Shown in pieces: positions 43,635 to 48,568 of a DNA stretch of 64,000 nucleotides. The position numbers were made by a program, and so were the translations under genes. A model generated the notes under the pieces. The model did not search any database, was not told the DNA's origin, and saw only the letters and a program-made list of their open reading frames with translations. The number at the start of each line of letters is the position of its first letter. Within the stretch, counting starts at the first letter, position 1. This DNA comes from Escherichia coli (lineage in GTDB: Bacteria > Pseudomonadota > Gammaproteobacteria > Enterobacterales > Enterobacteriaceae). Location of the stretch: NCBI RefSeq assembly GCF_002854065.1, contig NZ_CP024147.1, one strand, 5' to 3'.

Positions 43635-44104
43635 TTATATATTGCTCTATTTTTGCAAATCAAATCACAAATAATCAAATAAGATCTTTAATTGAACTGT
43701 TTTGATTACTACAGTGCACTTACCGAATACATACAGAGGCATTGCTTAGCGAAACACAAAATTTCCTGAGACATTATTAACGTCAGCAGAAGGTTCATGC
43801 ATTGACAACGGAAATGTACGCTTATGGAGGGCGTTCCGACGATGTTTGCCAAATTCATAGATGTTATTCAAACGTTTTTAACTGAACCGGCAATTTTAAT
43901 TGGTTTGCTGGTGGGTATTGGTTATGCCCTTGATAAGAAATCGCCAATAAAAATTATTACCGGCATGGTCAGCGCCATGGTGGGATTAATGATGGTGTTA
44001 TTTGGTGGTTTCCAGTTTTCCGCAACATTTAAACCGGTAGCAGAAGCCGGGTGATGCTGCCAACTTACTGATTTAGTGTATGATGGTGTTTTTGAGGTGC
44101 TCCA

Positions 44105-44380
44105 GTGGCTTCTGTTTCTATCAGCTGTCCCTCCTGTTCAGCTACTGACGGGGTGGTGCGTAACGGCAAAAGCACTGCCGGACATCAGCGCTATCTCTGC
44201 TCTCACTGCCGTAAAACATGGCAACTGCAGTTCACTTACACCGCTTCTCAACCCGGTACGCACCAGAAAATCATTGATATGGCCATGAATGGCGTTGGAT
44301 GCCGGGCAACCGCCCGCATTATGGGCGTTGGCCTCAACACGATTTTCCGCCATTTAAAAAACTCAGGCCGCAGTCGGTAA
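44105..44380 (+). CDS. insA: IS1 InsA
   Basis: 91 aa with CxxC zinc finger; part of IS1. Confidence 0.9.
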
Positions 44381-44802
44381 CCTCGCGCATACAGCCGGGC
44401 AGTGACGTCATCGTCTGCGCGGAAATGGACGAACAGTGGGGATACGTCGGGGCTAAATCGCGCCAGCGCTGGCTGTTTTACGCGTATGACAGGCTCCGGA
44501 AGACGGTTGTTGCGCACGTATTCGGTGAACGCACTATGGCGACGCTGGGGCGTCTTATGAGCCTGCTGTCACCCTTTGACGTGGTGATATGGATGACGGA
44601 TGGCTGGCCGCTGTATGAATCCCGCCTGAAGGGAAAGCTGCACGTAATCAGCAAGCGATATACGCAGCGAATTGAGCGGCATAACCTGAATCTGAGGCAG
44701 CACCTGGCACGGCTGGGACGGAAGTCGCTGTCGTTCTCAAAATCGGTGGAGCTGCATGACAAAGTCATCGGGCATTATCTGAACATAAAACACTATCAAT
44801 AA
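44299..44802 (+). CDS. insB: IS1 InsB (transposase catalytic portion, expressed as InsAB by -1 frameshift)
   Basis: 167 aa ORF; A6C slippery motif TTAAAAAAC at 44354-44362. Confidence 0.9.
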
Positions 44803-45965
44803 GTTGGAGTCATTACCCAGAAGCCGTAAGTAAAGCCTATGGTGTTCACGGATATTTAATGGATTCCTACGCAATGAAAGCGGCAACGCAAATTGCATTG
44901 GGGGATAATTTTGGTTATGTCGGGTATGTATTTGTACTGGCGTTTTTTACCAACCTGCTGCTGGTATTATTTGGTCGGTATACTGGTGCCAAAGGGATAT
45001 TTTTGACAGGGAATACCGGTGTTTCACATTCTCAGGCGGTATTATGGTTGATTGTCTTTTGGCTGGGTTTTAGCTGGACTACATCCATTATTATTGCCGG
45101 AATATTAACGGGTGTATTCTGGGCGTTCTTCACCACGCTCATTGTTAAGCCCATTGCCAAAGTTACCAAAGATGCCGGTTTTACCATTGCTCATAACCAG
45201 ATGTTGGGATTGTGGTTTTTCTCCAAATTCGCCCATAAATTTGGTGACCCTGAAAAGCACGATGCTGAAAACCTGAAACTTCCCGGGTGGCTGGCGATTT
45301 TTAACCATAACGTAACGGCTATCGCCATTGTGATGACGCTGTTTGTCGGTGGTTTCTTGCTATCAACGGGTATCGATAATGTCCAGTTAATGGCGAAAGG
45401 CAAGCCCTGGTACATCTATATCATCAACCTTGGCTTACAGTTCTCCATGTATATGGTCATTCTGCTGCAGGGTGTGCGCATGATGGTGGGCGAAATTAAC
45501 GGTTCGTTTAAAGGCTGGCAAGATCGCTTTATTCCTAACGCTATTCCTGCTGTCGATGTTGCAGCGCTGTTACCTTTTTCACCCAATGCCACAACGTTAG
45601 GCTTCGTCTTCTGTACTTTTGGCACCATTTTTTCGATGGGGATCTTATTACTGGTTCACAGCCCAATTATGGTATTGCCTGGCTTTGTACCTCTGTTTTT
45701 CTCTGGCGGTCCAATTGGCGTATTAGCAAACCGCATGGGCGGATACCGTTCCGTAATTATCTGTACGTTCTTGCTGGGTATTATTCAGACCTTTGGTACG
45801 GTGTGGGCTATTCCGTTAACCGGGCTTGCTGAAAATGGCGTCGGCTGGACAGGAATATTTGACTGGGCAACCGTATGGCCTGCTATTTGTGAAGTTCTGA
45901 AATTTATCGCTGCAACATTCCATCTTGGTCCTTACGCGGGTTAATTAAATATTAAGGGTTTAAAA

Positions 45966-46286
45966 ATGAAAGATACAATTAATATTCTGTTTGTCTGTGG
46001 TTACGGTGTAGGCAGTAGCGTTATGTTACAAACGGTCGTTAAAAAAGCGCTGACCAAATATGATTTCAAAGTTGAAATGGAACATACCGCCGCAGGTGAA
46101 GTCGGCGGATTTACCGACTGGGCGGATATTTTTGCTATTTCCAAAAAATTACTCGATGTGGTTAGTCTTGACCCGAAACAAGGGCAATATCTGATCCCGA
46201 TAGAGAATATTATGGACGGTGAAACTATTGGTCAGCAAATTTATGAAGTGGTTCAGCAACATTATCCGCATTTAATTAATCAATAA
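45966..46286 (+). CDS. PTS EIIB, ascorbate (UlaB/SgaB) family
   Basis: 106 aa; N-terminal ILFVCGYGVGSS phospho-cysteine loop. Confidence 0.75.
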   Translation: MKDTINILFVCGYGVGSSVMLQTVVKKALTKYDFKVEMEHTAAGEVGGFTDWADIFAISKKLLDVVSLDPKQGQYLIPIENIMDGETIGQQIYEVVQQHYPHLINQ

Positions 46287-46353
46287 GGTAGGGCGTAATG
46301 AGAGCGATTATTCTGCTGTTCGATAGTCTGAATAAACGGGTAATGACTCCAAC

Positions 46354-46857
46354 TTATTGATAGTGTTTTATGTTCAGATAATGCCCGATGACTTTGTCAT
46401 GCAGCTCCACCGATTTTGAGAACGACAGCGACTTCCGTCCCAGCCGTGCCAGGTGCTGCCTCAGATTCAGGTTATGCCGCTCAATTCGCTGCGTATATCG
46501 CTTGCTGATTACGTGCAGCTTTCCCTTCAGGCGGGATTCATACAGCGGCCAGCCATCCGTCATCCATATCACCACGTCAAAGGGTGACAGCAGGCTCATA
46601 AGACGCCCCAGCGTCGCCATAGTGCGTTCACCGAATACGTGCGCAACAACCGTCTTCCGGAGCCTGTCATACGCGTAAAACAGCCAGCGCTGGCGCGATT
46701 TAGCCCCGACGTATCCCCACTGTTCGTCCATTTCCGCGCAGACGATGACGTCACTGCCCGGCTGTATGCGCGAGGTTACCGACTGCGGCCTGAGTTTTTT
46801 AAATGGCGGAAAATCGTGTTGAGGCCAACGCCCATAATGCGGGCGGTTGCCCGGCAT
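46354..46857 (-). CDS. insB: IS1 InsB
   Basis: Identical protein to copy 1 InsB. Confidence 0.9.
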
Positions 46858-47051
46858 CCAACGCCATTCATGGCCATATCAATGATTTTCTGGTGCGTAC
46901 CGGGTTGAGAAGCGGTGTAAGTGAACTGCAGTTGCCATGTTTTACGGCAGTGAGAGCAGAGATAGCGCTGATGTCCGGCAGTGCTTTTGCCGTTACGCAC
47001 CACCCCGTCAGTAGCTGAACAGGAGGGACAGCTGATAGAAACAGAAGCCAC
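46776..47051 (-). CDS. insA: IS1 InsA
   Basis: Identical protein to copy 1 InsA. Confidence 0.9.
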
Positions 47052-48568
47052 TGGAGCACCTCAAAAACACCATCATACACTAAATCAGTAAGTTGGCAGC
47101 ATCACCGAATAAACGTTATCTGCCACCTTATGGCGATGCGTTAACCAAAGCGCCTAATTTCCAACGTCTGGCGGCTCATGCCGCCACCTTTGAAAACAGT
47201 TACGTCGGCAGTATGCCGTGTATGCCTGCCCGGCGGGAGTTGCATACCGGGCGATGTAACTTCCTGCATCGGGAGTGGGGGCCGTTAGAACCGTTTGACG
47301 ATTCCATGCCGGAGCTGCTTAAAAAGGCGGGGATCTATACCCACCTGATAAGCGATCATTTGCATTACTGGGAAGATGGCGGCGGGAATTATCATAATCG
47401 CTACAGTTCGTGGGAGATTGTGCGCGGACAGAAAGGCGATCACTGGCATGCAAGCGTTGCGCAACCGCCTATTCCCGAGGTGCTACGGGTGCCGCAAAAG
47501 CAGACCGGTGGCGGTGTTTCTGGTCTGTGGCGCCATGACTGGGCAAACCGGGAATATATTCAGCAGGAAGCGGATTTTCCACAAACTAAAGTGTTTGATG
47601 CAGGCTGTGCCTTTATCCACAAAAATCACGCGGAAGATAACTGGTTATTGCAGGTCGAAACGTTTGATCCGCACGAGCCGTTTCACACAACGGAAGAGTA
47701 TCTTTCCTTGTATGAAGATAACTGGGATGGACCGCATTATGACTGGCCGCGTGGCCGGGTGCAGGAAAGCGACGAGGCCGTGGAGCACATCCGTTGCCGG
47801 TATCGTTCGCTGGTGTCGATGTGCGATCGCAACCTGGGGCGCATTCTCGACCTGATGGATGAGCACGATCTGTGGCGAGATACCATGCTGATTGTCGGCA
47901 CTGACCACGGCTTTTTACTCGGTGAGCATGGCTGGTGGGCGAAAAACCAGATGCCTTATTACAACGAAGTTGCCAATAATCCGTTGTTTATCTGGGACCC
48001 GCGCAGTGGTGTAAAAGGAGAGCGGCGACAGGCACTGGTACAAATGATCGACTGGGCGCCAACGTTGTATGACTTTTTTCAACAGCCAGTGCCGCCCGAT
48101 GTGCAGGGGCAACCGCTGGCGAAAACGGTCAGTCACGATGAACCAGTACGCAGCTCGGCGATGTTTGGTGTCTTCAGTGGTCATGTTAACGTAACTGATG
48201 GGCGTTTTGTCTATATGCGTGCAGCGCTGCCGGGGCGTGAGGATGATATTGCCAACTACACGTTGATGTCCTGCAAAATGAACAGCCGCTATCCGGTGGA
48301 TGAGATGCGGGCTTTATCGCTGGCCCCACCGTTTCGTTTTACCAAAGGGTTACAGGTATTACGCATCCCGGCACAGGAAAAATATAAGGGGTTGAATCAG
48401 TTTGGTCATTTGCTGTTTGAGCTGCAAAACGATCCGCAGCAGCTACATCCGATTCATGATGATGTGATCGAGTCCCGGATGATCGCGTTGCTGATTCAGT
48501 TGATGAAAGATAATGATGCGCCGCCAGAGCAGTTTCAGCGCCTGGGATTAGCGTAGAGAAGTGATTTT

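Follow-up and report, generated by a model that had tools for sequence, protein, structure and literature searches.

The window, that is the whole 64-kb stretch of Escherichia coli DNA analyzed here, carries between rlmC and artJ a PTS EIIC-EIIB-sulfatase operon whose EIIC and sulfatase genes are each split by a copy of IS1. An intact version of this operon is present in 566 of 5,426 complete E. coli genomes (about 10%), which marks it as an accessory locus. Its features and those of the IS1 copies, including a third one further downstream, are the following:

43824..44049, plus strand: 5' part of the EIIC gene (PTS, L-ascorbate-family IIC), codons 1-75, from the ORF list and with the same start in the CUWW06 annotation
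44041..44049, no strand: left copy of target-site duplication 1, CAGAAGCCG
44050..44817, plus strand: IS1 copy 1, 768 bp, with IRL at 44050-44072 and IRR at 44795-44817
Coding parts of IS1 copy 1: insA 44105-44380, insB' frame 44299-44802, A6C -1 frameshift motif 44356-44362
44818..44826, no strand: right copy of target-site duplication 1, CAGAAGCCG
44827..45944, plus strand: 3' part of the EIIC gene, with two non-synonymous, strain-private substitutions
45966..46286, plus strand: PTS EIIB gene, intact, 106 aa, downstream of IS1 copy 1
46298..46338, plus strand: 5' end of the sulfatase gene, first 41 nt (13 2/3 codons), ATG at 46298
46330..46338, no strand: left copy of target-site duplication 2, GAATAAACG
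46339..47106, minus strand: IS1 copy 2, 768 bp, with its IRR end at 46339 and its IRL end at 47106
Coding parts of IS1 copy 2: insA 46776-47051 (minus), insB' frame 46354-46857 (minus)
47107..47115, no strand: right copy of target-site duplication 2, GAATAAACG
47116..48556, plus strand: 3' part of the sulfatase gene, with a Cys-type C-x-P-x-R motif, CMPAR
54662..55429, plus strand: IS1 copy 3, 768 bp, in the orientation of copy 1 and opposite to copy 2

The terminal repeats of copies 1 and 2, IRL GGTGATGCTGCCAACTTACTGAT and IRR GGTAATGACTCCAACTTATTGAT, are alike at 18 of 23 positions. The insA gene encodes a product of 91 aa, and a modelled -1 shift at the AAAAAAC motif at element position 307 yields an InsAB' fusion of 232 aa. 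This fusion scored 243.8 bits against the equivalog model NF033558 (transpos_IS1; cutoff 100, E = 1.4e-72) and also matched NF050000, which represents the N-terminal zinc-binding domain. Length, imperfect inverted repeats, an insA-insB' arrangement with A6C, a DDE transposase, a 9-bp duplication and an empty site thus all place the two copies in the IS1 family, the published description of which gives a length near 768 bp, imperfect terminal inverted repeats of some 23-30 bp and a target duplication of 8 or 9 bp (PMC12428005). An earlier note on this DNA had described two identical, inverted IS1 copies, each with a perfect 9-bp target duplication, and this description is exact to the base: the reverse complement of copy 2 equals copy 1 over all 768 bp, CAGAAGCCG stands on both sides of copy 1, and GAATAAACG on both sides of copy 2. 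A 9/9 match at a fixed position is expected by chance with a frequency of 4^-9, about 4e-6 per element. The segment between the two copies (44818-46338) measures 1,521 bp; it holds the 3' part of EIIC and the EIIB gene that the note had listed for these roughly 1.5 kb, and in addition 41 nt from the 5' end of the sulfatase gene, which that list had omitted.

The disrupted EIIC reading frame stops one codon inside copy 1 and gives a 76-aa product. An exact-protein look-up found neither this N-terminal fragment nor the 361-aa C-terminal ORF of the broken gene on record. The EIIB gene shows no nucleotide difference from that of strain CUWW06, and may be silenced by a polar effect of the insertion.

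To reconstruct the empty site, we excised each IS1 in silico together with one repeat copy, and obtained a sequence of 3,747 nt. As had been claimed, excision restores continuous reading frames for EIIC (447 aa) and for the sulfatase (493 aa), lengths that agree with those annotated for the intact genes of four E. coli genomes. The reconstructed EIIC matched NF009550 end to end with 958 bits (cutoff 583). The 493-aa ORF is identical at every nucleotide to the CUWW06 gene annotated as 'sulfatase', and scored below the cutoffs of the arylsulfatase and choline-sulfatase models. Aligned with the rlmC-[PTS IIC-IIB-sulfatase]-artJ region of CUWW06, the reconstruction formed one ungapped piece at 99.9% identity, and it also matched strain 100416 in one piece at 99.9%. 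CUWW06, an E. coli strain from wastewater, is 99.99% identical to the whole window, which is collinear with it across all 64 kb and differs from it by 8 substitutions over about 60 kb.

These data bear directly on the origin of the pair. Composite IS1 transposons such as Tn9 and Tn1681 have two IS1 copies bracketing a passenger, and an identical inverted pair around 1.5 kb would fit the insertion of an IS1-EIIC'-EIIB-IS1 block as a single unit, with inverted IS1 arms like those of Tn1681. Such a unit should, however, be duplicated at its outer ends, where the flanks are unlike (CAGAAGCCG versus GAATAAACG); each copy instead has a duplication of its own, and the DNA between them continues the native sequence of EIIC, EIIB and the sulfatase gene that 566 genomes have free of IS1. 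The empty-site alignment refutes membership in the composite IS1 transposons, and we regard this origin as hardly credible. The formation of both copies in one step, by intramolecular replicative transposition from a single IS1, has a comparably negligible probability. IS1 is capable of replicative transposition (PMC12428005), and the product of such a duplicative inversion would indeed be two inverted copies, but the process would also invert the intervening segment and split the 9-bp target copies, then inverted, between the elements. In the window, a direct repeat flanks each element separately, and the segment runs in its native direction, as in four reference genomes; duplication pattern and collinearity together refute the one-step event.

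The two insertions are private to this strain. Junction BLAST against 5,426 complete E. coli genomes found the junctions of neither copy 1 nor copy 2, and no other genome in this set has both IS1 copies together. Seventeen matches for junction 1 and one for junction 2 reached a coverage of 80% or more, but were discarded as shared insertions; at 88-89% identity and in unrelated loci, they represent IS1 ends with chance similarity in the flank. An exact scan of GTDB species-representative genomes and JGI metagenome contigs with the 40-nt left junction of copy 1 gave no match. The two junctions are strain-specific markers. Since identical 768-bp repeats are difficult to place with short reads, and since the junctions occur in no other public genome or metagenome contig searched, one might suspect that IS1 had been misplaced at one or both sites during assembly, or that consensus polishing had made the copies identical. 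A mis-join would not, however, yield exact 9-bp duplications whose removal restores two reading frames, and copy 3 retains a private SNP, which shows that copy-level differences were resolved and that the copies were not simply homogenized; we consider an artefact very unlikely. The identity of copies 1 and 2 could in part reflect assembly polishing.

The sister strains CUWW06 and 100416, which differ from the window at about 1e-4 of their sites, both lack the two insertions. Because relatives this close are without them, both insertions are younger than the divergence of this strain from its closest sequenced relatives. Hence the recency proposed in the earlier note is supported by the absence of the insertions from near-identical sisters and from complete genomes; the identity of the copies, which the note had also invoked, is uninformative, because only about 0.1 differences would be expected between 768-bp copies at such divergence. 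The identical IS1 sequence is found in the sister strains as well. Independence of the two insertions, in turn, is borne out by the direct 9-bp duplication that each copy possesses and by the difference between the two duplications. That neither inversion nor deletion followed agrees with the collinearity of the reconstructed empty site with intact loci and of the 64-kb window with CUWW06. An even number of inversions would give back the present arrangement. Taken together, we conclude with high confidence that two separate, strain-private simple insertions of a resident IS1 of the IS1B/C type occurred 2.3 kb apart in one operon, a reading with which none of the observations conflicts.

Based on established IS1 biology, the events at each site would have been as follows. 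The InsAB' DDE transposase, made by -1 frameshifting at A6C, would join the ends of IS1 to a target whose two strands had been cut 9 bp apart, and repair of the gaps would duplicate 9 bp. Copy 1, oriented with the operon, interrupts EIIC at codon 76, and copy 2, oriented against it, interrupts the sulfatase gene at codon 14. The result is an inactivated operon, and the bracketed 1,521 bp still lie in native orientation.

Copy 3 lies between ybjP and ybjQ, where it has replaced 366 bp of a pentapeptide-repeat pseudogene. No target duplication surrounds it (GAAACTGCG on one side, AGTAATCTC on the other), because the adjacent 366 bp have been deleted. Its site is one of nested IS1-adjacent deletions common to relatives, with the left junction also present in strain 100416, and copy 3 is an older copy. 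When all three copies were aligned, copies 1 and 2 proved identical, and copy 3 departed from them by one substitution, C592T (InsAB' H180Y). A low-stringency scan of the 64-kb window detected no further IS1 remnants. IS transposition favors nearby sites (PMC5009759), and an older IS1 of the same type, common to the sister strains, lies 7.5 kb from the insertions; this element is plausibly the donor, which would make the insertions local hops. Against this proposal stands the single base that now separates copy 3 from copies 1 and 2.

Two hits inside one 3.2-kb operon could also be read as the result of selection for loss of the transporter and the sulfatase, rather than of neutral decay plus local hopping. 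Of the 8 substitutions between the window and CUWW06, EIIC has three, none of them synonymous (post hoc P ~8e-4); one of the three belongs to CUWW06, which has an intact copy of the gene. On the other side, either insertion would have made a further hit neutral by inactivating the operon, a bias towards nearby sites makes such a hit likely (PMC5009759), and the operon is in any case accessory, being found in about 10% of complete E. coli genomes. We therefore judge selection improbable as the explanation for the two insertions. The two EIIC substitutions private to the window are 45130 C>T (S177F) and 45591 G>A (A331T); neither allele, 45130 T or 45591 A, occurs in any of the 566 complete E. 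coli genomes with this operon. Recombinational import of these substitutions was considered and rejected, given a best identity of 99.6% over 561 nt and neither allele elsewhere among these genomes.

The arrangement of the three copies has consequences for the stability of the region. The earlier note had pointed out that the inverted copies 1 and 2 could invert the segment they bracket by homologous recombination, which is sound in view of established knowledge (PMC5009759) and would depend on RecA; copies 2 and 3 might likewise invert the DNA between them, and recombination by RecA between the direct copies 1 and 3 might remove a 10.6-kb stretch that includes the art arginine-transport operon. 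The native isoform has the junctions IRR|CAGAAGCCGTAAGTAAAGCC and ...GATAGTCTGAATAAACG|IRR(rc), and IRR|CGTTTATTCAGACTATCGAACAGCA and CCATAGGCTTTACTTACGGCTTCTG|IRR(rc) are predicted for the inverted one. Short reads are blind to inversions between IS copies (PMC5009759). With three IS1 copies in 11.4 kb, this stretch should be treated as unstable, and care is warranted with assemblies and short-read variant calls. It is a lesser possibility that the inverted pair represents a nascent composite transposon or a flip-flopping segment.

When compared with known IS1 variants, the elements studied here are closest to IS1B and IS1C of E. coli K-12 MG1655, with which they share the length of 768 bp, 767 of 768 bases, the terminal repeats, insA, the insB' frame and the A6C motif. 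They differ at position 704, which is T here and A in K-12, and consequently have Leu217 in InsAB' instead of Gln217. Compared with the actively transposing 'consensus' elements IS1A and IS1E of K-12, the architecture, the duplication length and 760 of 768 bases are alike, whereas 8 substitutions set them apart, and InsAB' has F81 and R130 in place of L81 and S130. The type found here thus possesses 8 of the 9 differences that separate IS1B/C from IS1A/E, including InsAB' L81F, T704A (L217Q) being the one it lacks. No other IS1 type was seen in the lineage (six copies in three strains), and this one has made at least two strain-private insertions. These two insertions suggest that the copies are capable of transposition. 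Work by Chen et al. from 1998 on the transposase residues that govern IS1 transposability reportedly names Leu217. In contrast to the two strain-private insertions made by the variant studied here, IS1B/C of K-12 are reported to be nearly immobile (PMC12428005, PMC12903888), and L81F has been suggested as the reason (PMC12428005). It is conceivable, although we stop short of calling it probable, that the type found here is autonomously active in nature, in which case L217Q and not L81F would cripple IS1B/C of K-12. As evidence from nature that an IS1B-like element is mobile, the insertions make L217Q a possible cause of the immobility of the K-12 copies, which is a modest lead.

With Tn9 (direct IS1 arms) and Tn1681 (inverted arms) the block shares a pair of full IS1 elements around a short passenger, inverted as in Tn1681. 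Unlike these transposons, it arose where it now stands, from two insertions in native DNA, has outer ends without a duplication, carries as passenger two gene fragments plus EIIB without a selectable function, and bears no sign of ever having moved. A further parallel is offered by E. coli and Shigella lineages rich in IS1, in which insertion sequences turn genes into pseudogenes. The source of the window differs from these lineages in that it is an E. coli 99.99% identical to CUWW06, with its IS1 copies counted in a 64-kb window. Like them, however, it has several IS1 copies within tens of kb and an accessory metabolic operon inactivated by them, and IS-adjacent deletions also take away target duplications in these lineages (PMC11708052). 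We are dealing here with routine IS-mediated gene inactivation, textbook behavior of an insertion sequence, and not with a new kind of element.

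Three IS1 elements are present in the window, numbered here from left to right, and a low-stringency scan of the window found no further IS1 remnants:

44050-44817, plus strand: IS1 copy 1, 768 bp
46339-47106, minus strand: IS1 copy 2, 768 bp
54662-55429, plus strand: IS1 copy 3, 768 bp

The copies are canonical IS1 elements, and their features agree with the published description of a 768-bp element with imperfect terminal repeats, an 8- or 9-bp target duplication, and insA and insB genes from which A6C frameshifting yields a DDE transposase (PMC12428005). Each copy has GGTGATGCTGCCAACTTACTGAT and GGTAATGACTCCAACTTATTGAT as its imperfect terminal repeats (18/23 positions matching) and carries an insA of 91 aa, an overlapping insB' frame, and the slippery motif AAAAAAC at element position 307; a modelled -1 shift gives an InsAB' protein of 232 aa that scores 243.8 bits against the NCBIfam IS1 transposase equivalog NF033558 (cutoff 100).

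Copy 1 lies within the EIIC gene of a PTS EIIC-EIIB-sulfatase operon located between rlmC and artJ, with CAGAAGCCG on both sides (44041-44049 and 44818-44826); copy 2 resides in the sulfatase gene between two repeats of GAATAAACG (46330-46338 and 47107-47115). Re-inspection showed that the coordinates and sequences reported for both copies in the earlier note were all correct and that the 9-mers on the two sides of each copy are identical, a 9/9 match at fixed offset having a chance of about 4e-6 per element. As had been claimed for this pair, the reverse complement of copy 2 is exactly copy 1, and only copy 3 is one base off: C592T (window 55253) changes His180 of InsAB' to Tyr, and element position 592 is C in the locus-equivalent IS1 of the closest sequenced E. 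coli sister strains, 100416 and CUWW06. At copy 3 the target duplication is absent: its two flanks read GAAACTGCG and AGTAATCTC.

We reconstructed the empty locus in silico by deleting each operon-borne IS1 together with one 9-bp repeat. This excision restored, as predicted from inspection, open reading frames of 447 aa for EIIC and 493 aa for the sulfatase, and the gene lengths equal those of the annotated genes of four genomes. The restored EIIC matches the PTS IIC model of the L-ascorbate family (NF009550) over its full length with 958 bits (cutoff 583). The sulfatase contains a Cys-type C-x-P-x-R motif (CMPAR), scores under the cutoff of all named sulfatase models that it matched, and is labeled plainly as 'sulfatase' by RefSeq where intact. 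Since the intact locus is present in just 566 of the 5,426 complete E. coli genomes, the remainder matching only the rlmC and artJ flanks, the operon is an accessory island found in about 10% of the genomes, O157:H7 and O55:H7 included.

The reconstruction, spanning 3,747 nt from the 3' end of rlmC to artJ, aligned with CUWW06 and 100416 in one ungapped alignment at 99.9% identity; EIIB and the sulfatase gene each have 0 nt differences from CUWW06. Because it is a single-piece, same-strand match, this alignment identifies the 1,521 bp between copies 1 and 2 as native DNA in native orientation. It thereby excludes an inserted composite transposon, for which an outer-end duplication and a foreign passenger would be expected, and likewise a duplicative inversion through intramolecular replicative transposition, an event that would flip the segment and divide the 9-mers between both elements. 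Independent simple insertions, the reading first drawn from the sequence, are thus borne out by the separate 9-bp duplications and by the intact, collinear empty sites in relatives.

Window and CUWW06 are collinear throughout, and the complete list of their differences consists of the two IS1 insertions, the ybjP-ybjQ region at copy 3, and 8 substitutions in about 60 kb (about 1.3e-4 per site). This collinearity with the CUWW06 annotation also places genes for a RelE/ParE-family toxin and an HTH antitoxin between dgcI and rimO (about 19678-20383). Both CUWW06 and 100416 are devoid of the copy 1 and copy 2 insertions. When the whole 3.7-kb region was used to query the complete E. coli genomes, the top coverage was 58%, corresponding to the IS1-free locus, and 100-nt junction probes gave spanning matches of just 88-89%, at unrelated loci; the left junction of copy 1 had no exact match among GTDB species representatives or JGI metagenome contigs. 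Given that sister strains and surveyed genomes are without the insertions or their junctions, both insertions are, on this comparative evidence, younger than the divergence from the closest relatives sequenced. The recent origin proposed in the earlier note therefore stands, but its argument from copy identity is weak, since at this level of divergence two copies of 768 bp would be expected to show only about 0.1 differences; IS1 of the very same sequence is also carried by CUWW06 and 100416.

Copy 1 interrupts EIIC at codon 76, following nt 226, in the orientation of the operon and leaves a 76-aa stub, with EIIB intact downstream. Classical IS1 insertions are polar on downstream genes, and polar silencing of EIIB by copy 1 is expected by analogy. 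Copy 2 interrupts the sulfatase gene at codon 14, following nt 41, in opposite orientation to the operon, and one reading frame extends from it:

47093-48556: in-frame ORF from a TTG in the copy 2 IRL into the sulfatase 3' part, starting MAASPNKRYLPPYG...

The product would probably be inactive, as it is without the N-terminal strand carrying the conserved Asp (LLFDSL). The sequence around each target (±50 bp) is 42-43% GC vs 50.5% window-wide, which fits the AT-leaning target choice of IS1. The 1.1-kb EIIC 3' part holds 3 of the 8 window-CUWW06 substitutions, all three non-synonymous (post hoc P about 8e-4): S177F and A331T (window 45130 and 45591) are private to the window and occur in 0/566 genomes with the locus, and G393S (45777) is private to CUWW06, where EIIC is intact. 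Such clustering may point to a relaxation of constraint on the transporter in this lineage.

Between ybjP and ybjQ, copy 3, with flanks at 53602-56074, stands in place of 366 bp of a pentapeptide-repeat pseudogene. The window and 100416 have the left junction (54661|54662) in common but not the right one: copy 3 adjoins 55430 in the window, with 366 bp of O55:H7 CB9615 missing, and the IS1 of 100416 adjoins the position equivalent to 56132. CUWW06 shares neither junction with the window (53601|IS1|about 56075). Judged from these junctions, copy 3 is the older copy, at a locus with nested IS1-adjacent deletions; stepwise deletions adjoining IS elements remove target duplications (PMC11708052). 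The host gene (start 53892) is also frameshifted by a 1-bp deletion, private to the window, within a T-run at about 54170, and this gene already contains an internal stop in O55:H7 CB9615.

The window IS1 differs from IS1A at eight bases (760/768) and matches K-12 IS1B/C (L006, L007) at 767/768 positions; T704 here is A in K-12, giving Leu217 instead of Gln217 in InsAB'. IS1B/C of K-12 is reported to be essentially immobile, and L81F has been proposed as a cause (PMC12428005, PMC12903888). The window IS1 has F81, yet it made two strain-private insertions. Because an F81-bearing variant moved, L217Q is a candidate for the disabling change of K-12 IS1B/C, unless the variant's movement reflects mobilisation in trans. 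In CUWW06 an identical IS1 splits the aquaporin gene aqpZ (L001 40708-41475, just past the window's right end), and IS1 thus appears to be generally active in the lineage of the window and CUWW06.

Recombination between inverted IS copies flips the intervening segment in a manner invisible to short reads (PMC5009759), so long-read data are apt for spotting such an event; from the sequence we computed the junctions that would be diagnostic of an inverted isoform. The earlier view that no inversion or deletion followed the insertions agrees with the one-piece alignment to relatives, with the qualification that the present arrangement reflects zero or an even number of inversions. Copy 3 repeats copy 1 in direct orientation at a distance of 10.6 kb, and recombination between the two would remove the operon remainder together with artJ, artM, artQ, artI, artP, and ybjP.

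Transposition of IS elements favours nearby sites (PMC5009759), and copy 3, which is older and shares the sequence type, is found at a distance of 7.5 kb. Proximity bias from this element could have led to repeated hits in the 3.2-kb operon, and a second insertion into an already dead operon would be neutral; together these account most simply for the two hits. Less probably, selection for loss of the operon may have driven them. The pair is confirmed as a textbook case of two IS1 simple insertions, made independently, by which an accessory operon was inactivated in a lineage with apparently active IS1, and it represents an event of an already known kind.
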